Notes under the pieces: generated by a model
The model's input: the letters and a program-made list of their open reading frames with translations, nothing else
Databases searched by the model: none
What the model was told of the DNA's origin: nothing
Made by a program: the position numbers and the translations under genes
Origin: an uncultured delta proteobacterium
GTDB lineage: Bacteria; Desulfobacterota; Binatia; UBA9968
DNA length: 64,000 bases
Direction: 5' to 3'
NCBI GenBank assembly: GCA_963745035.1
Contig: CAVUVW010000017.1
Coordinates: forward strand, 192,001 to 256,000
In this document: positions 1-14,273 of the stretch, piece after piece
Layout: every line of letters starts with the position of its first letter
Numbering within the stretch: the first letter of the stretch is position 1

Positions 1-73
1 CGCAAAACGCGCAGACAGCAAGTTTCAGTTTCTTGCTGTCGCCTACCGCCTGTTGCCTGTTGCCTGTGATCAT
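1..73 (-). CDS. 5' end of an ABC_sub_bind-family SBP copy, continuing beyond the window edge
   Basis: Reverse strand reads [24 protein letters not shown], nearly identical to the N-termini of the copies starting at 4733 and 6788. Confidence 0.8.
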
Positions 74-200
74 CGAATCACCCTATCCGCCTTTGCCAGC
101 ACGTTGGGCGGAATCGTTAGGCCGATCTGCTTTGCGGTTTTGAGGTTGATGGTCAACTCGAACTTCGTCGACTGCTCCACAGGTAAATCCACGGGCTTTT
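70..200 (-). pseudogene. Orphan C-terminal ~40 codons of an SBP copy
   Basis: Reads [42 protein letters not shown]; in-frame TGA a few codons upstream and no gene body. Confidence 0.8.
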
Positions 201-254
201 TGTCTTGGCGTTGTCAGCGGGAAATGCCGTTAACCCACACGCGCGGCAAATCGA

Positions 255-283
255 TTGACGAAAGCCGATGCGGCGTTTAATCT
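255..283 (+). promoter_or_regulatory. sigma70-like promoter of TA module 1, probably leaderless
   Basis: TTGACG-N17-TAATCT ending 6 nt before the ATG at 290; no Shine-Dalgarno. Confidence 0.5.
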
Positions 284-289
284 CCAACC

Positions 290-535
290 ATGAAGCCCAA
301 TCATGAGAAAGTCTTGAAAGAGGCGTTGCGTCTTCCCACCGAGGCGCGTGCAGCGCTTGCCGGTCATCTGCTTGAAAGCTTGGATGACACAGTTGATGAG
401 GATGTTGAATTGGCGTGGGGCAAGGAGATTGCGCGACGCATCGACGATCTAGATCGGGGTAAAGTAAAGACGGTTCTCTGGTCCGTGGCGCGGCGCCAGA
501 TCCTCGGACGATCCGGTGGCCGCTCCAAGCGTTAG
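290..535 (+). CDS. Addiction-module antitoxin (TIGR02574-like)
   Basis: 81 aa, ALRLPTEARAALAGHLLESLD...W..EIARRI pattern; overlaps the downstream toxin. Confidence 0.85.
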   Translation: MKPNHEKVLKEALRLPTEARAALAGHLLESLDDTVDEDVELAWGKEIARRIDDLDRGKVKTVLWSVARRQILGRSGGRSKR

Positions 536-824
536 ACTCCATCCTGACGCAATCGCTGAGGCAAAGGCGGCTTACGATTGGTATGCTGAACGCAATCCCT
601 CTGTCGCGAATGCTTTCATCTCTGAACTCGATCACGCCATCAGCCAAATCCAAAAGACTCCGGAGCGGTGGGCCATGCATTTGCGTGGCACGAGAAAGTT
701 TCTCCTCCGACGTTTCCCGTACGCGGTAGTTTACCGGATCACCCAATCCACCATTCAGGTTATCGCTGTGGCCCATGGGCGCCGCCGTCCCGGCTATTGG
801 AAGTCGCGGCTTCAAATCGGGTAA
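516..824 (+). CDS. RelE/ParE-family toxin
   Basis: 102 aa, LHPDAIAE..AAYDWY...RRFPYAVVY...VIAVAHGRRRPGYW. Confidence 0.9.
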   Translation: MAAPSVRLHPDAIAEAKAAYDWYAERNPSVANAFISELDHAISQIQKTPERWAMHLRGTRKFLLRRFPYAVVYRITQSTIQVIAVAHGRRRPGYWKSRLQIG

Positions 825-847
825 GTCCATACTGAGATGATCACTGT

Positions 848-1954
848 TCACTTGATGACTTGATTCGCCCGCTCCAACACGCGGTTCGGAATTGTCAGGC
901 CGATCTGTTTCGCTGCTTTAAGGTTGATGACGAATTCAAATTTCGTCGCTTGCTGCACCGGCAAATCAGCCGGTTTGGCACCTTTCAAGATCTTGTCCAC
1001 ATAATCAGCCGCGCGGCGATAGAGGTCATCGAAGTCTGTCCCGTAGGACATCAGGCCGCCCTCATCGACAAACTCCTTCCGCCAGTAAATCGCCGGCAAG
1101 CGGAATTTGACGGCAAGCTCGACGATCCGCTTTCTTTCGGCGAAAAAGAAGGGACCGGCGGTGGTCATAATCGCGCCCACCTGCTTCTGCTTCGCGGTAT
1201 TAAAGGCGCTCTCTAAACCCTTGGCGTCGCGTTGAGTTTCGATCTCCTCCAATTCGAGCTTCAGTGCTAGAGCCGCAGGCCTGAGCGCTTTCATTTGGAG
1301 GTCTACAGCTAAGCTGGTTGTCGACCCCCGCAGAAGACCAACTCGGGCGAGCTTGAGGAACGCGTCCTTGAGTACCTCTAGTCTTTTAGTATTTAACTCC
1401 GGCGCTAGACCCGAGAATCCCGTAACATTGCCTCCCGGCCGCGCCAGATTGACAGCCAGACCGGCACCCACGGGGTCCGAAGCGATCGCCACGATGGGGA
1501 TGGCAGTAGTGGCGCTCTTGGCCGATAACGCCACCGCCGGCGACGTACCCACGATGACATCAACCTTGAGACGGACTAGGTCGGCCGCAAGCTCAGGCAG
1601 GCGCTCTGACTTTTGCTCGGAAAACCGGTACTCGAAGACGATATTTTTTCCTTCGATCCAGCCAAGCTTGCGCAGCTCCTGTCGGAACGCGTCCACGAGG
1701 ACCGCGCTACCGGAAGCAGTGCTGTTATCGAGGAACCCGATGCGGAAAACTTTTCCGGTCTGCTGCGCGTCGACAGAACCGCAAAGCGCAAAGAGCATGG
1801 CGCATAAACTAGAGATCAGAAGTCGCAGGTCAGAGATCGGCTTCAAATCAAAGCGGCAGACGGCACAGAGAAAACGTCCGGCGCTCGGACGCTGATGGTT
1901 CATTCCGGATCTGGGCTTTCTGACCTCTGACATCTGACCGCTGATCTCTGTCAT
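848..1954 (-). CDS. ABC_sub_bind (COG2984) SBP, copy 1; true start may be later
   Basis: RIGFL...LARPGGNVTG...GGLMSYG...[14 protein letters not shown] motifs; signal peptide ending VDA-QQ. Confidence 0.9.
   Translation of the reverse strand: MTEISGQMSEVRKPRSGMNHQRPSAGRFLCAVCRFDLKPISDLRLLISSLCAMLFALCGSVDAQQTGKVFRIGFLDNSTASGSAVLVDAFRQELRKLGWIEGKNIVFEYRFSEQKSERLPELAADLVRLKVDVIVGTSPAVALSAKSATTAIPIVAIASDPVGAGLAVNLARPGGNVTGFSGLAPELNTKRLEVLKDAFLKLARVGLLRGSTTSLAVDLQMKALRPAALALKLELEEIETQRDAKGLESAFNTAKQKQVGAIMTTAGPFFFAERKRIVELAVKFRLPAIYWRKEFVDEGGLMSYGTDFDDLYRRAADYVDKILKGAKPADLPVQQATKFEFVINLKAAKQIGLTIPNRVLERANQVIK
1810..1950. repeat. Inverted arms of TCTGACC-type heptamer repeats in the 5' region of SBP copy 1
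   Basis: agagatcagaagtcgcaggtcagagatc (~1810-1838) and tctgacctctgacatctgaccgctgatctctg (~1919-1950). Confidence 0.65.
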
Positions 1955-1960
1955 TTGAGT

Positions 1961-1989
1961 TTGACTTGAATCACCAGCTGCATTATAAA
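1961..1989 (+). promoter_or_regulatory. sigma70-like promoter of TA module 2
   Basis: TTGACT-N17-TATAAA; AAGGAG Shine-Dalgarno at 2011-2016. Confidence 0.55.
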
Positions 1990-2020
1990 TAACCTCATAA
2001 GTCTTCTAACAAGGAGCATT

Positions 2021-2263
2021 ATGGGAGCAATAGCCGTTTCTAAAAAGGAAGAAGAGCAAATCGAAAGGTTGCGTAAAGACCTGGGGATCGCAAGCAAATC
2101 GGCACTGATCCGCACCGCGCTAAGAACTTTGGAAAAGAAAAGCCAGGAAGAAAAATTACGCCGCGATATCCAGGACTCCGTGAATCGCTGCGGCGCGGCC
2201 GATCGTGAGGAGAACAGAGAACTTTTCAACGCCGGTGTCGCGCGCGCGGATGGGAAGGAGTAA
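2021..2263 (+). CDS. Putative ribbon-helix-helix antitoxin
   Basis: 80 aa, AIAV...IERLRKDLGIASKSALIRTAL; abuts the MazF gene. Confidence 0.75.
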   Translation: MGAIAVSKKEEEQIERLRKDLGIASKSALIRTALRTLEKKSQEEKLRRDIQDSVNRCGAADREENRELFNAGVARADGKE

Positions 2264-2608
2264 ATGCCCGTCAAACGGGGGCACTTATACATCATCGATT
2301 TCAATCCTCGCATCAAAACCAAGCCCGGAAAGCTTCGGCCTGGCCTAGTGCTCCAATCCGATCTCGTCAATGAGGCCGAGTATCCGTCGACTATCGTCAT
2401 TCCAACCACGACCCGGCTTGTGGAAAATCCGGGAATTCTTCGAATTCGCCTCAAGAAGGGCCAAGGCGGAGTCTCTCGCGACAGCGATCTACTGTTAGGC
2501 CAAGTGATCGCTGTGGCCAACGAGTCTTTCCGCCACGAGATTGGCTCCTTGCCAAATCCTATGATGGAAGAAGTGGAAAACCGTATCCGCATCATTCTAA
2601 ACTTGTGA
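2264..2608 (+). CDS. mazF: MazF/PemK-family endoribonuclease toxin
   Basis: KRGHLYIIDFNP...PGKLRPGLVLQSD...TIVIPTTT. Confidence 0.9.
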   Translation: MPVKRGHLYIIDFNPRIKTKPGKLRPGLVLQSDLVNEAEYPSTIVIPTTTRLVENPGILRIRLKKGQGGVSRDSDLLLGQVIAVANESFRHEIGSLPNPMMEEVENRIRIILNL

Positions 2609-2679
2609 GAAATCTCGGCTTGGTTAGTTCTTTGGATTTTCGATTAAAGACCATCTTCCTTACGCCTCGCCCCTCACGC

Positions 2680-3664
2680 CTATCGAATCACCTTATTCGC
2701 TCGCTCAAGCACACGGTTCGGAATTGTCAGGCCGATTTGTTTCGCTGCTTTGAGGTTGATAACGAATTCAAACTTCGTCGCTTGCTGCACCGGCAAATCA
2801 GCCGGTTTGGCACCTTTCAAGATCTTGTCCACGTAAACAGCGGCGCGCCGAAAGAGGTCAGTGTTGTCCGTCCCATACGACATGAGACCTCCCTCATCGA
2901 CAAACCCCTTCTGGGTAAATAGCCGGCAACCGGTATTTGACGGCAAGCTCGACGATCCGCTTTCTTTCTGCGAAAAAGGGGCGGGTGGACATCGTCATAA
3001 TCGCGTTGACCTGCTTTTGCTTTGCCGTTTGAAAGGCGCTCTCTAAACCTTTGGCGTCGGGTTGAGCATCGATCTCCTCCAATTTCAGCTTCAGTGCCAC
3101 AGCGGCAGGCCTGATTTCTTTCAGTTGGAGGTCTCTTCCTACGCTGCCCGTTGTCCCCCGCAGAAACCCAACTCGGGCGAGCTTGGGGACCGAGTCTTTG
3201 AGTACCTCTAGCCTTTTGTGTTTAGCTCGGGCGATAAACTCGACAAGCCGGTGACGTTGCCACCCGGCCGCGCCAGGCTCGCAACCAAGCCTGCACCCAC
3301 AGGGTTCCCAGCGTTCGTCATCACGATGGGGATCGTAGTCGTGGCGCTCTTGGCCGCTAATGCTGCTGGGGTCGCTGCGACCACGATTAGATCAACCTTA
3401 AGACGAACCAGCTCCGCCGCAAGCTCAGGTAGCCGGTCATTTTTCCTCTGCAAATCGGGACTCGATGGTGAGATTCTTTCCCTCGCTCCAGCCAAGCTTG
3501 CTCAGCTCTTGCCGTAACCTCTCCAAGCGGTCCGCGATTCTGGAAGTAATGCTATCATCCAGGTAACCTATGCGGAAGATTTTTCCTGTCTGTTGCGCGT
3601 CGACAGAACCGCAAAGCGCATAGAGCACGGCGCAAAGCGCAATTGCAAAAATCTCTCGTTTCAA
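2680..3664 (-). CDS. SBP copy 2, three frameshifts (~3440, ~3212, ~2912)
   Basis: Fragments 3437-3664, 3208-3495, 2894-3100 and 2680-2946 join into one SBP very similar to copy 1. Confidence 0.85.
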
Positions 3665-3667
3665 TTT

Positions 3668-3705
3668 CTCACCTCACGCCTGACGCCTCACCACTCACGC
3701 CTCAC
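3668..3705. repeat. CTCACGC-type heptamer tract at an SBP junction (also ~2658-2682 and ~5736-5750)
   Basis: ctcacctcacgcctgacgcctcaccactcacgcctcacc. Confidence 0.7.
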
Positions 3706-4733
3706 CGAATCACCCGATCCGCCCGCGCCAACACTTTCTGGGGAATGGTGACGCCAATCTGCTTTGCCGTTTTCAAGTTGATTACCAGTTCAAATTTTGT
3801 CGGCTGCTCGACGGGAAGATCGGCGGGTTTGGCGCCCTTCAGGATTTTGTCCAAGTAAGTGGCTACGCGCCGGTGGCTGTCCTCGAGGTCCGACCCGTAG
3901 GACATGAGCCCACCGGCTTCTACAGCTTCTCTGAACGCATACGTTGATGGTAACCGGCTCTGTATTGCAAAGCCCGCGATCCGTTTTTGGTTGGCTCTCA
4001 TCAGAAGGCTCGAAGTCAAGTAGAGCCCATCCGGGCGCTCCTTGTTGACGGCAGAGAACACCTGGTCAAAACCTTCCGCATCTCGTATTTCCCAAGGCCG
4101 AATCGTCAACTTCAGCGCGCGCGCCGCGACTGGGAGAACCTCTTTCAGCTCGAATGTACTCCCCCGACTGGACGGATCGTAAAGAACCGCGACGCGGGCA
4201 ACTTTGGGAACGGCTTCTTTGAGCAGCTTCAGCCGCTTACCGGCTAGTTCTGGAGAAAGGTTTGTAATGCCGGTGACGTTGCCCCCGGGACGCGCAAGGT
4301 TTTCAATTAGCCCTGCCTCGACAGGATCGAGCCCTTGGCCCAACAGAACGATGGGTATTGTGCTGGTCGCATTCTTGGCCGCGCGGATCACTGCGGTCCC
4401 TCCTGCGGCCACAAGAATATCCATCTTGAGACGCACCAACTCGGCCGCTAGCTCCGGGAGCCGATCGACCTTTCCCTCCGCATAACGGTATTCGATGGCG
4501 ATGTTCCGTCCTTCTATATAGCCGAGCTCGCGCAGAGCCAGCCGAATGGCCTCGGCACGGGCAGACTCATTAGTGGGGTCGCCCGCCGATAAATAGCCTA
4601 ACCGCGAGGTTTTCTTCGCCTGCTGCGCGTTAGCGGACGGGCAAAGCGCAAAGAGCACGGCGCAAAACGCGCAGACAACGAGTTTCAGTTTCTTACTGTT
4701 GCCTACCGCCTGTTGCCTGTTGCCTGTGATCAT
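3702..4733 (-). CDS. SBP copy 3 (intact)
   Basis: 343 aa, family motifs and signal peptide. Confidence 0.92.
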   Translation of the reverse strand: MITGNRQQAVGNSKKLKLVVCAFCAVLFALCPSANAQQAKKTSRLGYLSAGDPTNESARAEAIRLALRELGYIEGRNIAIEYRYAEGKVDRLPELAAELVRLKMDILVAAGGTAVIRAAKNATSTIPIVLLGQGLDPVEAGLIENLARPGGNVTGITNLSPELAGKRLKLLKEAVPKVARVAVLYDPSSRGSTFELKEVLPVAARALKLTIRPWEIRDAEGFDQVFSAVNKERPDGLYLTSSLLMRANQKRIAGFAIQSRLPSTYAFREAVEAGGLMSYGSDLEDSHRRVATYLDKILKGAKPADLPVEQPTKFELVINLKTAKQIGVTIPQKVLARADRVIR

Positions 4734-4740
4734 CGAATCA
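4696..4740. repeat. TGCCTGT-type heptamer junction (also ~36-80 and ~6751-6795)
   Basis: ctgttgcctaccgcctgttgcctgttgcctgtgatcatcgaatca occurs three times near-identically, with ATGA stop/start overlap. Confidence 0.8.
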
Positions 4741-5725
4741 CTTTATCCGCGCTGGCCAGCACGTTTTGCGAGATCGTGAGGCCTAGCTGTTTCGCCGTCT
4801 TCAGATTGATCACCAGCTCGAACTTCGTCGGCTGCTCCACTGGAAGGTCTGCGGGCTTGGCGCCCTTTAGGATCTTGTCGACATAAGTGGCGGCGCGCCT
4901 GAAACTTTCCGTATCGCTGGATGAATAGGACATGAGGCCACCGGCCTCGACGTACTGTCTGTCCTCGTGTATTGAAGGCAGTCGGTTCTTTACGGCAAGG
5001 GCCGCAATCCGCTTTGGGTAACTTGCGGCCAGCGGACCGGTAACCGAAATGATCGCGCTCGCGCGCCCCTTGGTCGCGGCTTGGAATGCTGCCTCGTAAT
5101 CAGGATTCGGACCGCGCACCTCTAGGAATAAAAACTGCATCTTTAGTGCGCGCGCCGCAGCCTCATAATCTTTGAAAGCAATAGCCACCGCCGAGCTGCT
5201 CGCCTCTCCAAGGACTCCGACGCGCGATATCCCGGGAACCGCTTCTTTGAGCAGTTCTAGCCGCTTTCCGCTCAATTCTCGGATGAGGCCGGTGAGCCCG
5301 GTAATGTTCCCGCCGGGGCGCGCTAGGCTATCGATTAGCCCAGTGGCGACTGGATCCTGAGTTGTCACCATGACAATGGGAGTCGTCTTGGTCGCCTCCT
5401 TGGCTGCGCGGATCGCTGATAGAGATCTAACGACAAGCACATCGACCTTGAGTTGCACGAGTTCGGCCACTTGGTTTGTAATCCGGTCAGGCTTTCCTTC
5501 ACCGTAGCTATACTCGATCAGGATGTTTTTCCCCTCAATGTAACCGAGATCTCGCAGCCCTTGCCGGAATGCTTCGGCGAACGGATGGGGAGAGGTGGGG
5601 GTGGGGCTGACCCTTTGCGCCAGAAATCCTATGCGAGGTACTTTTCCTGTCTGCTGCGCCTCGACAAGAGAAGTAGTTGCCAGAAAGAGAGTTGCTAGCA
5701 GCCTGAGAGTGATTCTCTTGTTCAT
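4730..5725 (-). CDS. SBP copy 4 (intact)
   Basis: 331 aa, family motifs. Confidence 0.92.
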   Translation of the reverse strand: MNKRITLRLLATLFLATTSLVEAQQTGKVPRIGFLAQRVSPTPTSPHPFAEAFRQGLRDLGYIEGKNILIEYSYGEGKPDRITNQVAELVQLKVDVLVVRSLSAIRAAKEATKTTPIVMVTTQDPVATGLIDSLARPGGNITGLTGLIRELSGKRLELLKEAVPGISRVGVLGEASSSAVAIAFKDYEAAARALKMQFLFLEVRGPNPDYEAAFQAATKGRASAIISVTGPLAASYPKRIAALAVKNRLPSIHEDRQYVEAGGLMSYSSSDTESFRRAATYVDKILKGAKPADLPVEQPTKFELVINLKTAKQLGLTISQNVLASADKVIR

Positions 5726-5763
5726 ATTTTTCTCTTACTCACGCCTCAGCCTGCTGCCTGTTT

Positions 5764-6788
5764 TCACTTGATCACTCTATCCGCCCGCGCCAGCACACTC
5801 GGCGGAATCGTCAGACCGATTTGCCTGGCCGCCTTGATATTGATGACCAACTCGAATTTCGTCGGTTGCTCCACCGGAAGGTCTGCCGGCTTTGCGCCTT
5901 TAAGAATCTTGTCGACATAGGTCGCCGCGCGCCGGGACAAGTCAATAAAGCTTGTGGCATAACTGACCAGGCCGCCGGCTTCGACAAATTCATCCCGTCC
6001 GTACGTCGCCGGGAATTTGTTCTTCGCTGCGAACTCGACGATCCGATTTCTGTGTGCGTTCATCAGCGGACCGCCAGCGATCATCAATCCACCGGGGCGC
6101 CATTTCATGATCGCTTGGAATTGACTATCGAAGTCTTCGGCCTTTGCCAGTTCGAACCTTTGCGTTTGTACGTTTAGCACTCGGGCGGTTGGCTCTATCT
6201 CGTCCACGCCGATCCCTTCGGTGACGTTCGTCAAATCCCTTAAAACCGCCACACGCGAGAGCTTGGGAGTAATTTCTTTAAGCAGCTCCAATCGCTTGTC
6301 ACCGAGATCCCCGCTGACATTCGTAAGCCCCGTGATATTTCCAGCCGGCCGCGCGAGACTGCTGACAAATCCCGACGCCACCGGATCGTTGTCCGACATC
6401 ATGACGATGGGAATCGTAGTGGTCGCTTCTTTGGCAGGGCGGGTCGCTGAACTTCCCGTCGTGACAATCACATCGACGTGGAGATGGACCAGCTCGGCGG
6501 CAAGCTTGGTCATTCGCTGGGCGTCGTTGTCCGCGAAGCGGTAATCGATGGTAATGTTTTGTCCCTCGATGTATCCCAGCTTTCGTAGTGCCTCTCGAAA
6601 TGCTTCGACACGATCTTTTTGAACCGTTGCCCGGTTGAGAGAAAGGAACCCGACTCGGGAATCTTTTTCGCAGACTGCTGCGCCTCGGCGGACGAGCAAA
6701 ACGCAAGGATCACGGCGCAAAGAACGCAAGCAGCGAGCTTCAGATTCCTACTGTTGCCTACCGCCTGTTGCCTGTTGCCTGTGATCAT
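5764..6788 (-). CDS. SBP copy 5, one frameshift (~6660)
   Basis: N-terminus in 6510-6788 frame, remainder in 5764-6729 frame; one C missing in a C run. Confidence 0.88.
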
Positions 6789-7759
6789 CGAATCACCCGA
6801 TCCGCCCGCGCCAGCACACTCGGCGGGATGGTCAAGCCGATCTGCTTGGCAGCCTTGAGATTGATAACCAACTCGAACTTCGTCGGCTGCTCCACCGGCA
6901 AGTCGGCGGGTTTGGCACCCTTCAGAATTTTGTCGACGTAGACCGCAGCGCGCTGGAACAACGCTGGGAAGCTCGTGCCGTAAGACATAAGGCCGCCGGC
7001 TTCCACGTACTCCGTGAAGCTGTACATTGCCGGGAGTTTCTGCCTGGCCACCGCTTCTGTGATCAGCTTCCGGTTAAAGAAGATCAATGGATCCGGAAGC
7101 TCGAAGAGTGCCTGCGGTCGGTCCTTCCCAATGCCGGATAAAACCTTTTGAATCTCTTCCTGGTTTCGCGCCTCCAGGGAAATCAATGTAACTTTCAGCG
7201 CCTGCGCTTCGGTCAGACTTTCCTTGTACGCGGCCTGTTGACCCGGCTGGTTCGGGTTCCAGAGAACGGCCACGCGCGAGAGGCGTGGAACAACTTCCTT
7301 CAGTAACTCGAGCCGTTTCCCGGTCAAATCCGGAGCGATATGCGTCAGCCCAGTTATGTTTCCTCCGGGCTTCGCCAGGCTGGCGACGAATCCCGATCCT
7401 ACGGGGTCGGTGACTCCCGCCATGATGATCGGGATCGAGCTGGTTTGTTCCTTGGCGAACCGGATCGCAGGAGTAGCCGAAGAAACGATGACATCGACTT
7501 TGAGGCGAACAAAGTCGGCGACGAAGCCTGGCAAACTTTCCAACTTGCCGTCGGCCCAGCGGTACTCGATCACGATGTTGTGTCCGTCCACGTACCCAAG
7601 CTCGCGCAGCCCCTGTACAAACGCGGTAGCATGATGCCCCGCAGTGGCTTGGGAACCGGCTCCCACATAACCGATCTTTTTCGCTGGCTGCGCCAGGGCC
7701 ACCGCCCCACAGGGGGCCAGAGTCACAAAGATTGCAAACAGTCCAACGAAGCGTTTCAT
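6785..7759 (-). CDS. SBP copy 6 (intact)
   Basis: 324 aa, family motifs. Confidence 0.92.
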   Translation of the reverse strand: MKRFVGLFAIFVTLAPCGAVALAQPAKKIGYVGAGSQATAGHHATAFVQGLRELGYVDGHNIVIEYRWADGKLESLPGFVADFVRLKVDVIVSSATPAIRFAKEQTSSIPIIMAGVTDPVGSGFVASLAKPGGNITGLTHIAPDLTGKRLELLKEVVPRLSRVAVLWNPNQPGQQAAYKESLTEAQALKVTLISLEARNQEEIQKVLSGIGKDRPQALFELPDPLIFFNRKLITEAVARQKLPAMYSFTEYVEAGGLMSYGTSFPALFQRAAVYVDKILKGAKPADLPVEQPTKFELVINLKAAKQIGLTIPPSVLARADRVIR

Positions 7760-7766
7760 ACCCCGC

Positions 7767-8165
7767 CTATTTTAGATTTCCGATTTTAGATTGCCGATTG
7801 ATCGGAGGATTTCCGTTGCGGTTCTGAAGAGTTCTTATTGATGCTACCGTCATTGCGATGATCTCGTTGGTTTCTTGCAACAACTCCGACAGCCTGGCCT
7901 CAGGTACAAGCCCCGATTCAATCAGTAGTTCCATCCAGTAGGCTGACTCGTCTGCTTCTTCTTCAACTATCCGAAGCTTAGCGATCACATCCGCAGTGGA
8001 CTTGCCGCGACACGCTGCTCGATAGTTAGCGCCGATCGAAGTGCCGGATCGGATCAACTGTCTACCGATCACGTCCGCGGTTCGGTTCTTCGGTAGCGCG
8101 TCGACGACTTTGATGATGCGTAAAGCTAGCTGCTTTGTGCGCTTCTTGAATACGTTTTCATCCAT
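7767..8165 (-). CDS. Four helix bundle protein (23S rRNA IVP family, TIGR02436-like)
   Basis: RTKQLALRIIKVVDALP...IGRQLIRSGTSIGANYRAACRGKSTAD..AKLRIVEEEADESAYWMELL. Confidence 0.9.
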   Translation of the reverse strand: MDENVFKKRTKQLALRIIKVVDALPKNRTADVIGRQLIRSGTSIGANYRAACRGKSTADVIAKLRIVEEEADESAYWMELLIESGLVPEARLSELLQETNEIIAMTVASIRTLQNRNGNPPINRQSKIGNLK

Positions 8166-8210
8166 GTATTTTCTCGGCCAATCGAAAATCGGCAATCGAA
8201 AATCGAAAAT
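7769..8210. repeat. Inverted AATCGAA-type heptamer arms flanking the four-helix-bundle gene
   Basis: attttagatttccgattttagattgccgattg (~7769-7800) and caatcgaaaatcggcaatcgaaaatcgaaaat (~8179-8210). Confidence 0.8.
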
Positions 8211-8211
8211 G

Positions 8212-9257
8212 TCATTTAATGACTTTGTCCGCCCGCGCCAGCACACTCGGCGGAATCGTCAGACCGATTTGCTTGGCCGCCTTGATATTGATGATCAGAT
8301 CGAACTTCGTGGGCTGCTCGACAGGCAGATCGCCTGGCTTGGCGCCTTTCAAAATCTTGTCCACATACGTTGCGGCGCGCCGGTCCAAGATCGGTGATGC
8401 TTGCGCCGTAGCTCATTAACCCCCCGTTGTCGACAATTGTCGAATTGTAGTAAATCGCCGGCAGCCGGTTCTTTACCGCGAGGTCCGGAATCCCTCGGGA
8501 AAAGTTGCCGGGGAAGTTCAGCACGAGGACTGCATCCGCTCGCTCCTTGCTCGCGGTTCGTAATGCAGCCTCGATATCCTTTGAATCTCGTATGTCCAAA
8601 TATTGAATCTGCACGCCGAGCGCGCTCGCCGCGAGTTCCGTCTCTCTTAGCGATTGCGAATTGCCGGGGTTGTTAGACATACCGAGGACCGCCACGCGAG
8701 AGAGCTTGGGAACAATCTCCCTCAGAATCTCCAGTCGTTTTCCGCTTATCTCCTGGGCAAGGTTAGACAATCCCGTAATGTTTCCGCCGGGTCGCGCCAG
8801 GCTGGCGACGAACCCGTTCCCAACAGGATCGCTATCCTGCGTCATGACAATGGGAATCGTAGTGGTTGCTTGCTTGACGGCGCGGGTTGCTGTGGGACCA
8901 CCGGTGACGATGACGTCTACCTTGAGACGCACCAGCTCGGCTGCAAGCGCGGGGAGGCGATCGATTTTTCCCTCGGCAGATCGCCACTCAATGACAATGT
9001 TTTTCCCCTCGACATAACCAAGTTCACGCAGTCCCTGCCGGAATGCCTCCTGCGAACCGCTGCACTGCCGGAACGGGAGTCGGCAGTTAGATAACCTATG
9101 CGCGAAATTTTCTTCGGCTGCTGCGCCGCGGCCACCGCCCCACACATTGCGAATGCGACAGCGAGAGCAACAATCCCCACCAATTTTCGATTTTGGATTT
9201 TAGATTTTCGATTGTCGGAGCAGAGAAAGCAAAGCGCATTCGAGATGTCTTGTGCAT
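8212..9257 (-). CDS. SBP copy 7, several frameshifts (~9230, ~9065, ~8385)
   Basis: Fragments join into a full SBP; GGAG SD before ATG at 9257; ends ADKVIK*. Confidence 0.82.
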
Positions 9258-9296
9258 TTGTTTTTCTCCGTAATCGAAAATCGGCAATCTAAAATC
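9182..9296. repeat. Empty inverted AATCGAA heptamer arm pair
   Basis: aattttcgattttggattttagattttcgattg, ~57-bp spacer, aatcgaaaatcggcaatctaaaatc. Confidence 0.8.
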
Positions 9297-10342
9297 ACTT
9301 AATAACTTTGTCCGCCCGCGCCAGCACGTTCGGCGGAATCGTCAGGCCGATCTGCTTAGCGGCATTCATATTGACGAGGAACTCGAACTTCGTCGCCTGC
9401 TGTACCGGCAAGTCGGCCGGTTTGGCGCCTTTCAAGATCTTGTCGACAAAGTCAGCGGCGCGCCGCCATAAGTCCGTATTGTCTGGCCCGTAGCTCATCA
9501 AGCCGCCGGCCTCAACAAACTCACTGTAGTGGTAGATCGCCGGCAACCGGTTCTTTGCCGCGAAGTCCAACACTTGGCGTTGCTGAGTATTGATAAGTGC
9601 ACCTGTGGTCGTAATGAGCGCCTGGGCGCGTTCCTTTTTCGCTCGTGCGAATGCGCCCTCAAAATCGTCAAGGCTTCGCACCTCCAGCGATAGAAGTTTG
9701 AGTCCCAACGCCTTGGCCGCAGCCTCCATATCTGTGAGGGCCAGGTTTCCCCTCGTTCCACCCGGTTCCCAGAGGAAGGCCACCCGGGCAACCTTAGGGA
9801 AGGCTTCCTTGAGCAGCTCCAACCGTTTGCCATCTAGATCTGGCACCATGAGACTAAGACCGGTGATATTCCCGCCTGGTTGCGCCAGGCTGGAGACAAG
9901 CCCAGTTCCTACTGGATCGGAAGCAGCGGCGAATACGATGGGAATCGTCGCGCTCGCCTTCTTGGCAGCTAATGTAGCGCCGGGGCCGGCTGGTGACGAT
10001 GACGTCAACTTTGAGACGGACCAGTTCGGCTGCAAGGTCAGGCAGCCGTTCGCCTTTCCCTTCTGCATAACGGTACTCAATGACAATGTTTTTTCCTTCG
10101 ACATAGCCAAGCTCGCGCAGCCCTTGGCGAAATGCTTCGACCCGGGCCGAGAGGAAGGACGCGGAGGACGGGATCAGAATTCCTATCCGGTGAATTCTCG
10201 CCGGCTGCTGCGCCTGAACCACCGCCCCGCCAAACGTGACCGCGAGGACGATTGCAAAGAGCCCCGCCCATTTTCGATTTTCGATTTTGGATTCTTAGAT
10301 TGTTGGTCGAATAGACTTCGATCCAAAGATCACTTTCTGCAT
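9295..10342 (-). CDS. SBP copy 8, frameshifted (~10295, ~9990)
   Basis: Fragments 9854-10222 and 9295-10110; single AATCGAA tract at ~10270-10302. Confidence 0.82.
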
Positions 10343-10367
10343 TGCTCTTCTCGCCTCATCCAAAATT

Positions 10368-11429
10368 CTACCGAATGACCCGATCCGCCCGCGCCAGCAC
10401 GCTTCGGCGGTATCGTCGAGGCCGATCTGTTTCGCCGTCTTCTGATTGATCACCAGCTCAAACTTCGTCGGCTGCTCCACGGGGAGATCGGCAGGCTTGG
10501 CTCCCTTCAGGATTTTGTCCACGTAGGTGGCTGCGCGCCGGTAGCTGTCCGCGACGTCCGCCCCGTAGGACATGAGCCCACCGGCATCTACAGCTTCTCT
10601 GGTGTAGTACATCGACGGTAACCGACTCTTTAACGCAAAGCCCGCGATCCGTTTTTGATTAGCAGTCATTAGCGGGCCCGCGATGACGTAGAGTCCATCC
10701 GGGCGCTCCTTATTCAGCCCAGCGAATACCTTCTCGAAACCGTCCGCAGCTCGTGCTTCCGAAGGCTGAATAGTCAACCCCAGCGCACGCGCTGCGACTG
10801 GGAGATCCAATTTTACCTCGAGTACACTGGGCCGATTGGCCGACTCGTAGAGAACCGCGACACGGGCAACTTTGGGAACGGCTTCTTTGAGCACCTCCAG
10901 CCGCTTCCCGCCTAGTTCTCTGGAAAGGGTTGTAAGGCCGGTGACGTTGCCGCCGGGACGGGCAAGGCTTTCAACTAGGCCCGCCTCGACAGGATCGGCC
11001 GAAAGGCCCATCATAACTATGGGAATCGTCTTGGTCGCATTCTTGGCCGCCCGGATCATTCGTGATCCCTCCTGGTACCACGATGAGATCAACCTTGAGA
11101 CGCACGAGCTCGGCCGCAAGCTCAGGGAGCCGATCGACCTTCCCCTCCGTATATCGGTATTCGAAGGCGATGTTCTGTCCTTCTATGTAGCCAAGCTCGC
11201 GCAGAGCCAGCCGAAATGGCTCGGCACGGACGGACTCAGTAGCTGCATCGATCCCCGATAGATACCCTATCCGCTGGACTTTCTTCGCCTGCTGCGCCTG
11301 AGCCACAGCCCCACAAATTGCGAATGCGACAGCGAGAGCAAAGATCCCCACCAATTTTCGATTTTCGATTTTCGATTTTCGATTGCCGGAACAAGAATCG
11401 GAAACTCGCTTCGTCGAAAATACTTTCAT
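10368..11429 (-). CDS. SBP copy 9, frameshifted (~11065, ~10410)
   Basis: MKVFSTKRV...AQAQQAKKVQRIGYL; corrected frame ends ARADRVIR* at 10368. Confidence 0.82.
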
Positions 11430-11474
11430 GCGTCTTCTCACGTAATCGAAAATCGGCAATCGAAAATCAAAAAT
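11353..11474. repeat. Empty inverted AATCGAA heptamer arm pair
   Basis: aattttcgattttcgattttcgattttcgattg, ~58-bp spacer, aatcgaaaatcggcaatcgaaaatcaaaaat. Confidence 0.8.
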
Positions 11475-11475
11475 G

Positions 11476-12459
11476 TCATCTTATGACGCGATCCGCTCTC
11501 GCCAGCACATTGGGTGGAATCGTCAGGCCGATTTGCTTGGCCGCTTTGAGGTTGATCACCAGCTCAAATTTAGTTGGCTGCTCGACAGGCAAATCGGCGG
11601 GCTTCGCGCCTTTAAGAATTTTGTCTACGTACGTGGCGGCGCGCCGGAACAAGTCGGTAAAACTGACGCCGTAGCTCATAAGCCCTCCGTTTCCCACCCA
11701 CTCGGAGTGCCAGTAAATGACTGGGAGCCGGCTCTCTACCGCGAGTTCTGCAACCTGTGTTCGATGAGAATTGAGGATGGAGCTCGGCAGCACGAGGACT
11801 GCGTCAGCACGTCCTTTGCTAGCGGCTCGGAATGCAGTCCCAATATCCTTTGGACCTAGTACGTCTAGGGATTGAAGCTGCACGTTGAGCGCTTCAGTGG
11901 CCAGTTCCGTTTCTCGTAACACTTGTGCGTTGCCTGGTTCGGTCGAGTTGCCGAGGACACCCACGCGGGAGAGTCTAGGAACAGTCTCCTTCAGAAGCTC
12001 CAGTCGTTTCCCGCTTAAGTCTGAGGAGAGGTTCGACAATCCCGTGATGTTATTACCAGGCCGCGCCAGGCTGGCGACGAATCCATTGCCCACCGGATCG
12101 GTATCCTGCGCCATGACGATGGGAATCGTAGAAGTTGCTTCCTTGATGGGACGGGTTGATTGCGGTCCACCCGAGACGACGATGTCAACCTTGAGACGCA
12201 CTAGTTCAGCCGCGATCGCGGGCAGCCGATCAAATTTTCCCTCTGCATAGCGCCACTCAATCACAATGTTTTTCCCCTCTATGTACCCAAGCTCGTGCAG
12301 TCCCCGCCGGAAGGCCTCGGTGCGGGCGACGTTCGTGGCAGGGGAGCCAGCAGTTAGGTATCCAATCCGAGCAACTTTCGCCGGCTGCTGCGCCTGAGCG
12401 GACGAGCAAAGCGCATAAAGCATGGCGCAAAGGGTCAGACGAAGAGAGTTTTTCCTCAT
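11476..12459 (-). CDS. SBP copy 10 (intact; first gene of the array)
   Basis: MRKNSLRLTLCAMLYALCSSAQAQQPAKVARIGYL...; family motifs. Confidence 0.92.
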   Translation of the reverse strand: MRKNSLRLTLCAMLYALCSSAQAQQPAKVARIGYLTAGSPATNVARTEAFRRGLHELGYIEGKNIVIEWRYAEGKFDRLPAIAAELVRLKVDIVVSGGPQSTRPIKEATSTIPIVMAQDTDPVGNGFVASLARPGNNITGLSNLSSDLSGKRLELLKETVPRLSRVGVLGNSTEPGNAQVLRETELATEALNVQLQSLDVLGPKDIGTAFRAASKGRADAVLVLPSSILNSHRTQVAELAVESRLPVIYWHSEWVGNGGLMSYGVSFTDLFRRAATYVDKILKGAKPADLPVEQPTKFELVINLKAAKQIGLTIPPNVLARADRVIR

Positions 12460-12720
12460 GCGTTTCCTTGCTCTCTGCCCGTGGAGTCGCCTTGTTAGGA
12501 GCACGAACAGTGCCACGATCGACTCATCGATATCTCCCAGGAGAGCCGTGAATTTGCTGAAGAGTTTCTGATGCTGGGGATCGCACAGACGAATCCAGCG
12601 ATGTGAGCGAGCCGAATTGATACGGGGAGTAGCTATCTTGATTCATCGCCTTTCGGCCGGCGCGATGGCCAGAACGAGCAGCGAGGGAAGGCGACTTAAG
12701 TCCAACTCGGGATCTCATCC

Positions 12721-12760
12721 AAAAAAAAGGCCCAAGCGGTATGAAACCGTTCGGGCCTTT
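12721..12760 (-). terminator. Intrinsic terminator upstream of the array head
   Basis: Reverse strand aaaggcccgaacggtttcataccgcttgggcc followed by T8. Confidence 0.7.
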
Positions 12761-12963
12761 GTATTATCAGTCTATGGTGCCAGCCTGAGCAGCGTCAGCC
12801 GGTATTCGATTGAGTGAGGTTATCCCACGCTCGTCACAGGGCTGTCAATCTCAATGAAAAGCGCTGGCCGTGTTCTGCCTCGAGCTTCCCGGATCGCTTG
12901 ACAGGCCGATTGTGCTGAAATATCTCTCGATGAACATCGCACGGCAGAGCAAATACAGAAATT

Positions 12964-13017
12964 CCACCACGAAGGCACGAAGGACACGAAGGTTTCGTAG
13001 GATGCGCTCCGCGCACC
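12964..13017. repeat. Half CACGAAG-type 9-mer arm followed by a GTAG-type REP
   Basis: ccaccacgaaggcacgaaggacacgaagg then gtaggatgcgctccgcgcacc. Confidence 0.55.
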
Positions 13018-13079
13018 GATCGTCGTACCGGAGAGCCGCGATATATTCAACGTAAACGGTACAGAGAGGAACTTGAAAC

Positions 13080-14273
13080 ATGAGCATCAGAGGAAAAACT
13101 GCCGTTGTCGGCATCGGCGAGACGCCGACCGATCGGCTCGGCAGCAAGCCTGGCGAAGCGAGAAAATCCACGGCGGAATATCTCGCCTGGGCGGCGCGCC
13201 TGGCGATGGAAGACGCCGGCCTGACCAAGAAAGACTTCGACGGCCAGGGTCTCGCCGCGATTTATACGACGAATCATTCACAACCGTTTTGGCCCGAGGA
13301 AGTGGCGGCGATCCTCGGCATTACGCCGGCAGTGTCACTGGCGGGAGGCAATGGCGGCGCCAGCTCGGTTTCGTTGCTCGGTCATGCCGCCGCGGCGATC
13401 ACCGCGGGTTTGTGCGATCTCGTCCTGGTCATCGCCGCCGCAGCTCCGTTCAGCGAACGCGGCGGACACCGGGGCGCCCACGCCGACACGCGCGACTACG
13501 AAATGCCCTTCGGCGTCATGGGGCCGAACTGCAAAATTTCATTCGTCATGAGCCGCTACATGCACGAATCGGGCATGACCGAAGAGCACTTCGGCAAGAT
13601 CGCCGTGACCGGGCGCTATCACGCTTCGCTCAACCCCAACGCCTATTTGAGAAAGCCCATCACGATCGAGGACTACAAGAAGTCGCGCATGATCTCCGAT
13701 CCGATTCGGCTGTTCGATTGCGTCATGCCGGCCAACGGCGGCAAGGCGTACATCATGACCTCGGCGGAGCGCGCCAAGAGCATGCGCAAGAAGCCGGTCT
13801 ATTTGCTCGGCTGGGGCGAGTGCAACAACGCCAGCTACGGGCCGCGCTACCGGGCTAATCCGCTCATCACCGGCATCACGCAAGCCGGCAAACGCGCGTT
13901 CGAAATGTCGGGTGTCGCGCACAAGGACATCCGCTGCCTGAATCTCTATGACGATTACATTCCGATCGTCATGATCCAGATCGAAGACCTCGGCTTCTGC
14001 GGCAGGAACGACAAAGCATTCTTTGAAAAGACCGATTTCACTTTCAAAGGCGACCTGCCGATTCAGACCAGCGGTGGCATGATCAACTGCGGTCAGCCGT
14101 CAACGACCGGGGGCATGCTGCACGTCCTCGAGACCGTCCGGCAGATCCGCGGCGAAGGCGGCGACCGGCAAGTTCCGAATATCAAGTTCGGCATCAGCAC
14201 CGGCGTCGGCGCAGTGAACTATGGCAAAAATTTCGGCTGCACCGCCGCGGCAATCTTAGGGAGTGAAGCGTAG
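13080..14273 (+). CDS. Thiolase-family protein (SCP2/Ltp2-like)
   Basis: KTAVVGIGET..., ISDPIRLFDC, LPIQTSGG; followed by DUF35 partner. Confidence 0.85.
   Translation: MSIRGKTAVVGIGETPTDRLGSKPGEARKSTAEYLAWAARLAMEDAGLTKKDFDGQGLAAIYTTNHSQPFWPEEVAAILGITPAVSLAGGNGGASSVSLLGHAAAAITAGLCDLVLVIAAAAPFSERGGHRGAHADTRDYEMPFGVMGPNCKISFVMSRYMHESGMTEEHFGKIAVTGRYHASLNPNAYLRKPITIEDYKKSRMISDPIRLFDCVMPANGGKAYIMTSAERAKSMRKKPVYLLGWGECNNASYGPRYRANPLITGITQAGKRAFEMSGVAHKDIRCLNLYDDYIPIVMIQIEDLGFCGRNDKAFFEKTDFTFKGDLPIQTSGGMINCGQPSTTGGMLHVLETVRQIRGEGGDRQVPNIKFGISTGVGAVNYGKNFGCTAAAILGSEA

Follow-up and report, generated by a model that had tools for sequence, protein, structure and literature searches.

A long and changeable array of orphan PF04392 substrate-binding protein genes in an uncultured Binatia genome

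Why does a bacterial chromosome line up dozens of genes for exported binding proteins without a transporter beside them, and how does such a row of genes grow? We address this question in a 64,000-nucleotide stretch of DNA from an uncultured delta proteobacterium of the Binatia (GenBank assembly GCA_963745035.1, contig C17, positions C17:192001-256000), hereafter called the window, which opens with a tandem array of genes for substrate-binding proteins (SBPs) of the family PF04392 (COG2984). A preliminary description of this DNA had proposed an expanding or shuffling ligand-binding repertoire that is maintained like an integron array, possibly by an undescribed diversification system. Our analysis of the source genome (G000; 7.43 Mb in 28 contigs, 92.6% complete, 5.8% contamination) and of its congeners points to more ordinary means. 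The array is best explained as a real, extreme and dynamic case of a known phenomenon, orphan binding-protein expansion, and not as a new diversification machine. We give a probability of roughly 0.7 to the reading that it is the product of a lineage-specific expansion of orphan SBP genes through unequal homologous recombination, that its copies follow a birth-and-death course and that they serve as a repertoire.

The minus strand of window positions 1-12516 carries ten full-size PF04392 genes of ~1 kb each, arranged head to tail. We delimited the copies with our own hidden Markov model (HMM) run over six frames, combined with a listing of open reading frames (ORFs) and with Pfam (PF04392 gathering cut-off 25.9 bits). 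PF04392 is matched by 12 of the 13 candidate SBP ORFs of the window, 11 of them above the cut-off. The full-size ORFs score 115-183 bits and cover profile positions ~17-293, the ORF at 9854-10222 falls below the cut-off with 21.5 bits, and an N-terminal piece at 10971-11459 has no Pfam match. Five of the ten full-size copies are single open frames and five are split into 2-4 pieces. Together with an edge copy and a fragment, this reproduces exactly the count of ten near-full, co-oriented copies given in the preliminary description.

Judged by their sequences, the array genes appear to encode exported SBPs of the PF04392/COG2984 (TrpX-like) family. A profile built from 44 copies matches the PDB entries 3LKV (E 2.4e-59), 3LFT (3.5e-51) and 6HNI (1.2e-45), and the N-termini of the SBP ORFs, read by eye, resemble Sec signal peptides ending in AxA-QQ. 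The score of 150.6 bits to the NCBIfam model of TrpX (NF041285), against a cut-off of 390, places the array copies below the TrpX equivalog level. Known ligands of the family, as given in an excerpt of PMC10443332, are Trp, Tyr and Phe. The nearest public relatives of the array proteins, at 59-74% identity, come from metagenome-assembled genomes (MAGs) labelled Candidatus Binatia or 'delta proteobacterium', and the host is probably a soil-dwelling member of the Binatia. The median pairwise identity between copies is ~56%.

The window holds only the upstream (right) end of the array, which reaches 14.5 kb further left to C17:177552 and comprises 24 full-size copies in 27 kb, 7 of them single-frame. 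Across the source genome, 123 Pfam matches to PF04392 resolve into 81 full-size copies (46 single-frame, 35 split) plus short fragments. Further arrays lie at C2:131-26508 (22 copies, 19 single-frame), C14:386055-413871, C14:129646-135666 and C15:1-3832, several of the arrays starting at contig ends; other copies occur in smaller groups or as singletons.

Against these 46 single-frame and 35 split copies stands one cognate-type permease. The genome has 12 matches to the permease family PF02653, and PF04392 genes lie beside one of them only (C14:49370-50233). It belongs to the sole cognate-type operon, C14:48469-53475, which encodes a two-domain SBP (661 aa), a STAS protein, the permease and an ATPase, with a SpoIIE-GAF protein and a xanthine/uracil permease beside it; a second copy of the two-domain-SBP/STAS module, at C14:806-809 kb, has no permease. 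Among 100 flank and inter-copy ORFs of the arrays that we scanned, none encodes a permease, an ATPase, a tyrosine recombinase or a reverse transcriptase. The flanks carry metabolic genes and other SBP families, and the window from 13 to 64 kb is ordinary chromosome without a cognate-type transporter. The absence of permease and ATPase genes noted in the preliminary description thus holds, for the cognate type, in the array as well as in its scanned flanks, and no cognate transporter lies just outside the window. Inside other arrays we find retropepsin-like ORFs, NMT1-family SBPs, a serpin and one IS5-type transposase fragment, and one ORF with an rve domain adjoins a small SBP group on C11.

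As a separate observation, the two-domain PF04392 proteins (661 and 658 aa), at C14:46652-53475 and C14:806192-811341, both adjoin STAS proteins and xanthine/uracil permeases, and one of the two loci also has a SpoIIE-GAF-HATPase protein, a PF02653 permease and an ATPase. From its gene content, such a locus appears to link a binding-protein transporter to a partner-switching module.

Comparison among congeners reveals that the PF04392 expansion is genus-wide but very uneven. First-look candidate counts are 218 in G018, 142 in the source genome, 135 in G012, 117 in G003, 14 in G013 and 11 in G008 (99% complete), and PF04392 matches occur in none of seven genomes of a sister family. Our genus-wide tallies include the unpublished genome G005, and no claim depends on G005 alone. 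All 21 genomes of the genus contain the 6.8 kb right of the array. The left flank consists of two NMT1-type SBP genes and the right flank of a thiolase-like gene; in G004, G014 and G031 these flanks are 175-200 bp apart and enclose no PF04392 gene, so that the site is empty. This same conserved site holds 6 full-size copies in G015, at least 9 in G012 (to the contig end), 24 in the source genome and ~29 in G018, where 13 are split and the array extends to the contig start.

The copies themselves point to duplication within the lineage. Array copies 2, 8, 16, 18, 19 and 23 of the source genome have a single best match, copy 26 of G018; copies 1, 4, 21 and 24 have copy 14 of G018 as their common best match; copies 9 and 10 share G018 copy 6, and copies 17 and 20 share G018 copy 8. 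These in-paralog subfamilies are interleaved along the array, and the copy order differs between the two genomes. Taken with candidate counts of 11-218 among the congeners and none in the sister family, the subfamilies with single best matches in G018 speak for an expansion by duplication within the lineage. The orphan ligand-binding repertoire that expands and contracts, as the preliminary description had it, is supported: 0 to ~29 copies occupy the site, their order is not conserved, and there is a single cognate-type permease operon. Identical order and content in relatives would have spoken for a static locus; instead the order differs and some sites are empty. Tandem rows of the same SBP subfamily are also present elsewhere: other soil MAGs have as many as 15 single-frame copies in a stretch of 21 kb, a Binatia MAG has 10 in 13.8 kb, and a Methylomirabilota contig and a Burkholderiales contig have 7 and 6, respectively.

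How are copies gained and lost? Within the array on C17 a two-gene block is duplicated (181654-183620 and 184583-186555, 87% identity) and a tandem partial duplicate is 91% identical. The copies at window positions 848-1954 and 2680-3664, on either side of a MazF module, are close relatives (75-88% by segment). The best-conserved DNA bridges the junctions, where the 3' end of one gene meets the signal-peptide region of the next, as in the blocks 4610-4903 and 6665-6958, which are 80% identical. Unequal crossing-over within this conserved gene-end DNA would readily add or delete entire genes, and unequal homologous recombination fits the duplicated blocks and the interleaving of the subfamilies. 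We propose that recombination of this kind between paralogs would add and remove copies, one whole gene or several at a time, and that many would then decay, giving a birth-and-death pattern. The surviving copies may form a receptor repertoire with differing ligand specificities, which would pass their ligands to the single shared cognate-type permease/ATPase of the ATP-binding cassette (ABC) type or to membrane sensors. The undescribed diversification system envisaged as a possibility in the preliminary description is not supported.

To follow exchange within genes, we compared nearest paralogs in sliding 200-nt windows using BLAST-based tables. Seven of the ten window copies keep one nearest-paralog group along the gene, and one 5' segment switch stands out (C17:200215). 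The copies C17:196733, 197767 and 198788 are so divergent (best matches 50-73%) that the best match changes in almost every 200-nt segment, which is uninformative as to exchange. Rampant or fine-scale mosaicism is not supported by this nearest-neighbour test.

The single-frame copies are maintained by purifying selection. Among 43 single-frame copies compared, the 15 closest pairs (proportion of synonymous differences, pS, 0.24-0.55) have ratios of nonsynonymous to synonymous divergence (dN/dS) of 0.19-0.45, about 0.3. In the copy alignment the last ~58 residues are nearly invariant while both lobes diverge, and the motif in this segment is also present in PDB 3LKV. The C-terminal 58 codons have a proportion of nonsynonymous differences (pN) of 0.134 with a pS of 0.715, against a pN of 0.386 and a pS of 0.726 in the remainder. 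Since the C-terminal pS is as high as elsewhere, this conservation reflects constraint on the protein and not gene conversion.

Several observations weigh against an origin by unequal recombination within the array, or against the repertoire and decay that we attach to it. Several window copies are closest to copies on other contigs (C2:14710, 83-88%; C11:42751, 90-93%; C6:5824, 89-94%), and high-identity matches between distant loci span one gene and end at the stop codon. Because the closest relatives sit on other contigs as single-gene-length matches, local unequal crossing-over alone is insufficient. The two-domain SBP of the sole cognate-type operon is distant from the array copies (72-111 bits against the array profile), and in a genome that is 92.6% complete a second permease could be missing. 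As regards decay, indel variants in contigs from other samples restore a full frame to three of the five copies that are split in the window: three small insertions give the copy 2680-3664 an open frame of 331 aa, +G after 6656 gives the copy 5764-6788 one of 345 aa, and a -1 variant at 9988 gives the copy 9295-10222 one of 310 aa. These three copies are either recent strain-specific pseudogenes or assembly consensus errors. Finally, 17 of 27 copies that have a paralog of >=80% identity are split, compared with 18 of 54 copies without one, the copies not being mutually independent. This enrichment fits dying young duplicates and consensus errors of a long-read MAG equally well, and many of the apparent frameshifts may be assembly errors. 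On the other hand, some of the decay is real, because indel errors make neither in-frame stops nor truncated fragments; in-frame stop codons occur in copies left of the window only, with up to six in one copy.

The units of the array in the window can be followed from left to right, all SBP copies being on the minus strand. At the left edge (1-73) lies the 5' end of a copy whose remainder is left of the window (C17:191040-192073), followed by a C-terminal SBP fragment at 73-207 (profile positions 293-335) that abuts the first toxin-antitoxin (TA) module. A single-frame copy at 848-1954 (154.7 bits to PF04392) separates this module from the second, after which come a copy in four frame pieces (2680-3664), two single-frame copies (3702-4733 and 4730-5725, the latter with an ATGA overlap with its upstream neighbour), a copy with one frameshift close to its 5' end (5764-6788) and a further single-frame copy (6785-7759). 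A four-helix-bundle gene is placed here, and beyond it lie a copy in three frame pieces (8216-9183), a copy with one frameshift (9295-10222), a copy in two frame pieces with its C-terminus out of frame (10295-11459) and the array's first gene, a single-frame copy at 11476-12516 with 183.4 bits to PF04392. The ATGA coupling noted in the preliminary description is present at three window junctions (73, 4730-4733 and 6785-6788). An intergenic region (12517-13079) leads to the conserved thiolase-like gene; its counterpart in three congeners is an empty site of about 180-200 bp. Upstream of that gene, at 12940-13010, we observe an 8-nt tandem repeat (CACGAAGG-like) that is lacking at the corresponding empty sites in G004 and G031. 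A promoter and terminator scan of 1-13200 was uninformative, with 2 promoter-like and 8 terminator-like sites, both fewer than the shuffle means of 6.3 and 15.4, and neither Rfam (gathering thresholds) nor ARAGORN gave a match on the array.

The only interruptions of the SBP series are, as had been stated, two TA modules and the one four-helix-bundle gene. The first module, on the plus strand, consists of an antitoxin of the PF09720 Unstab_antitox / TIGR02574 type (290-535) and a ParE-family toxin (PF05016; 516-824; 49.5 bits against a cut-off of 23). The second, also on the plus strand, pairs a ribbon-helix-helix (CopG-type) antitoxin (PF01402; 2021-2263) with a PemK/MazF-family toxin (PF02452; 2264-2608; 73.5 bits). 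With genes that overlap at 516-535 in the first case and abut at 2263/2264 in the second, both are putative type II TA modules. The four-helix-bundle gene (7767-8165, minus strand) encodes a 23S rRNA-intervening sequence protein (IVP; PF05635, TIGR02436 91.9 bits) and is one of 18 IVP matches in the source genome. It is flanked by inverted heptamer arrays, CGAAAAT-like on its 3' side (7770-7810) and, in gene sense, ATTTTCG-like on its 5' side (8166-8219). Miniatures of ~115-130 nt that lack the IVP gene are found at window positions 9183-9297, where inverted heptamer arrays flank a ~55-nt remnant, and at 11354-11483, again with inverted heptamer arrays, as well as at junctions of the C2 and C17 arrays; the remnant resembles the start of the IVP gene. 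These IVP-less miniatures suggest that the IVP unit is or was mobile, leaving remnants like miniature inverted-repeat transposable elements.

In our reading, selfish insertion accounts for the TA pairs and the IVP gene, because IVP genes cluster with toxins in an island on C13. In that island (C13:1770001-1800000) we record ten IVP Pfam matches or fragments together with ParE, Zeta, DUF4258 and DUF5615 toxins, and also a DNA methylase, RadC, ORF6N and a degraded group II intron reverse transcriptase/maturase. In the proposed course of events the TA pairs, the IVP gene and the miniature remnants would be secondary insertions of this kind, and the TA pairs might incidentally penalise deletions. 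TA cassettes limit cassette loss in superintegrons; by analogy, the TA modules may protect the array from deletion.

The repeats at the junctions are real. Just after stop codons lie imperfect 7-nt tandem repeats that fall into a small number of classes (GGCGTGA, AGGCAAC, GTCAGTA and ATTTTCG/CGAAAAT). Tandem Repeats Finder reports 590 period-7 arrays in the source genome, the commonest units being AACAGGC, AGGATCG, AAAATCC and AAAATCG, as a genome-wide intergenic feature that recalls the heptamer short tandemly repeated repetitive sequences of cyanobacteria. Of its 1283 arrays of period 7, 8 or 14, 85 fall in the SBP arrays, whose share of the genome is 1.4%. The window junctions consist of heptamer repeats or ATGA overlaps, the heptamers being those of the genome-wide class and of IVP-element remnants.

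The genome does contain integron-like elements elsewhere. A palindrome of ~75 nt, with left arm AGGATTGAACTGAA and right arm TTCAGTTCAATCCT, stands 3' of the stop codons of co-oriented genes. The left-arm motif has 28 matches at <=2 mismatches (0 in a reversed-pattern control), and 15 elements are complete with both arms. The palindrome scan delimits cassette-like clusters at C11:128557-149425, C13:1120290-1125730, C14:129608-134647 and C26:82179-96630, whose genes are short and unrelated (DUF4440, glyoxalase, GH65, methyltransferases, TENA, a response regulator and one PF04392 SBP). The clusters have whole units in common at 95-97% identity, and one 958-bp block (96.6%) ends at the right arm of the element. 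At scattered loci of the source genome the palindrome also lies directly 3' of SBP genes, 11 copies or fragments in all, an adjacency that coordinate comparison finds again in G017 and G018. In the genus, 15 of 21 genomes have the left-arm motif, with 40 matches in G018. The consensus fold has 14 pairs, one of them compensatory, and single-strand DNA folds give z of -1.5 to -3.0; by this modelling the palindrome is compatible with a hairpin site, which does not by itself prove attC identity.

Candidate enzymes are present as well. A canonical integron integrase gene is encoded at C6:42039-43169 on the minus strand (TIGR02249, 445 bits; cut-off 265), not adjacent to the array, and 7 of the 21 genomes in the genus exceed this cut-off. 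No ~75-nt palindromic elements were detected beside this integrase; just upstream of its gene are GTTCAA tandem and inverted repeats with an attI-like look, short repeats being common in this genome. A Xer-like tyrosine recombinase, split into two ORFs (C11:129973-130875, plus strand), lies between left and right palindrome arms, and similar Xer-like frames of ~285 aa occur at at least eight places in G018, several near the palindrome motif. It is conceivable, and we put it forward as a tentative and rather doubtful proposal, that SBP genes are a major cargo of an undescribed integron-like system with sites of ~75 nt (core boxes like attC R''/R') that is served by IntI or the Xer-like enzyme, its cassettes seeding sites that unequal crossing-over then inflates. 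Such seeding would explain why matches between distant loci span one gene and end at its stop codon. A cassette route for dispersing single SBP genes may thus be a lead; it is not an explanation for the window array, which lacks the sites.

What, then, of other explanations for the array as a whole? That MAG assembly has created the array or much of its apparent decay, by stitching together dispersed paralogs or several strains, seems very unlikely to us. Such an artefact would be in keeping with arrays that begin at contig ends (C2:131, C15:1, C1:230), with the 5.8% contamination, with the frame-restoring variants of other samples and with the excess of close paralogs among split copies. The read evidence consists of Logan short-read contigs from other soil and rhizosphere samples with patchy coverage, and we draw no conclusion from uncovered parts or from contigs of RNA libraries. 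No Logan contig record spans the whole array, and many short-read contigs jump from paralog to paralog, which is indistinguishable from the presence of other strains or of chimeric short contigs. However, other-sample contigs bridge three junctions, namely SBP-TA2-SBP (1875-2793), SBP-IVP-SBP (6872-8277, from a different study) and last SBP-flank (12098-12994), and G018, G015 and G012 carry arrays at the same flank. A median identity of ~56% is also too low for repeat collapse at most junctions, and truncated fragments and in-frame stops are not indel errors. A chimeric assembly, which would have undone the preliminary description, is thus not what the junctions and the congeners reveal.

We consider it equally improbable that the window array is an integron-like cassette array, moved by a site-specific recombinase and stabilised by its TA modules as in superintegrons. 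The co-oriented SBP genes with inverted TA modules resemble one, the single-gene matches to other loci end at stop codons as cassettes would, and the same genome holds a canonical IntI, palindrome-bounded clusters and SBP copies followed by the palindrome. Against this, neither palindrome arm matches in the window at <=3 mismatches, and the whole-genome scan for the left arm finds none in the 27-kb array, so the lack of recognisable attC sites reported for the window stands when the genome's own palindrome is used. The three ATGA overlaps leave no room for a recombination site. Apart from the two TA modules and the IVP gene, the units belong to one paralogous family and not to unrelated genes, and homologous recombination is what the duplicates of multi-gene blocks and the interleaving of subfamilies indicate. 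Neither a tyrosine recombinase nor a reverse transcriptase or transposase is found in or beside the window array (flank scans; C17:160-205 kb for the recombinase). The preliminary description had suggested extending the contig leftward and looking for a recombinase or reverse transcriptase; the array did extend, to C17:177552, and neither enzyme was found at it. IVP and Avd belong to one Pfam family, and a diversity-generating retroelement might be sought behind the IVP gene; RVT_1 matches in the source genome amount to two degraded pieces only (C13:1.788 Mb), with GIIM alongside, and no such retroelement is recognised. Maintenance in the manner of an integron array is therefore the part of the preliminary description that we give up. 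A different alternative accepts the array as real and takes its SBPs chiefly as ligand sensors for membrane kinases or chemoreceptors rather than as transport receptors. We regard this as unlikely, though far less so than the two preceding explanations. It would make sense of 46 single-frame copies facing one cognate-type permease and of the STAS and SpoIIE-GAF partner-switching context of the sole cognate-type operon, and the same option has been raised for orphan binding proteins of tripartite tricarboxylate transporters (TTT) in the excerpted text of PMC5994714. A dCache-HAMP-GAF histidine kinase (C14:413985-416928) directly follows the last SBP of the C14 array; the C17 and C2 arrays, however, have no adjoining kinase or chemoreceptor gene. 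The constrained C-terminal segment is also conserved in transport-linked members such as 3LKV, and multiple SBPs per permease are known, for example DppA1-A5 of Pseudomonas aeruginosa (PMC4206461, in excerpt).

Lineage-specific expansion of orphan SBP genes through unequal homologous recombination remains the reading that we prefer, and it gives the locus a wider interest. Orphan SBP expansions are a long-standing puzzle, in which dozens of receptors face one transporter or none. The Binatia array lies in an uncultured soil phylum, and it offers natural contrasts: sister species in which the site is empty or filled, copies that are single-frame or split, and copies borne in arrays or in cassettes. 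With these contrasts one can test rates of gain and loss, selection on ligand pockets and whether paralog arrays are supplied by site-specific recombination. In addition, the copies provide a set of related receptors with which to look for ligands in soil carbon turnover. In the literature searched, at the level of titles and abstracts and with supplements outside its scope, we found no description of PF04392/COG2984 expansions, of Binatia SBP arrays or of Binatia integrons.

Among known systems, superintegrons are similar in their long array of co-oriented ~1-kb units with inverted TA modules, and an IntI and cassette-like clusters are present in the same genome; the window array differs in having no attC-like sites or adjacent integrase, a cargo of a single paralog family and overlapping junctions. 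With TrpX, CD0873 and 3LKV-type proteins the array copies share the Pfam family and full-length homology, and the C-terminal motif is common with 3LKV. Characterised TrpX-type members, as excerpted from PMC10443332, are single genes beside a permease and an ATPase, whereas the array copies are orphans with diverged lobes. The DppA1-A5 receptors of P. aeruginosa are paralogs with distinct ligand profiles that serve one membrane complex, DppBCDF (PMC4206461, in excerpt), and number five compared with dozens in the Binatia array, whose copies would share their transporter in a similar way. The closest precedent is the expansion of TTT ('Bug'/TctC) binding proteins in Bordetella, Cupriavidus and Rhodoplanes sp. 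Z2-YC6860. According to the portion of PMC5994714 available, orphan TTT/Bug genes number 79-181 in Bordetella and 434 in Rhodoplanes, whose longest array has nine genes. Both cases set tens to hundreds of SBP paralogs against few membrane components, with tandem arrays, duplication within the genome as the driver and a function that may lie in a shared transporter or in sensing. The Binatia genes differ in being of the PF04392 ABC type and in another phylum, and their arrays of 24 to ~29 copies exceed in length the TTT examples in that source; they differ further in their many apparently decayed copies, their empty and filled sites and the selfish modules inside the arrays.

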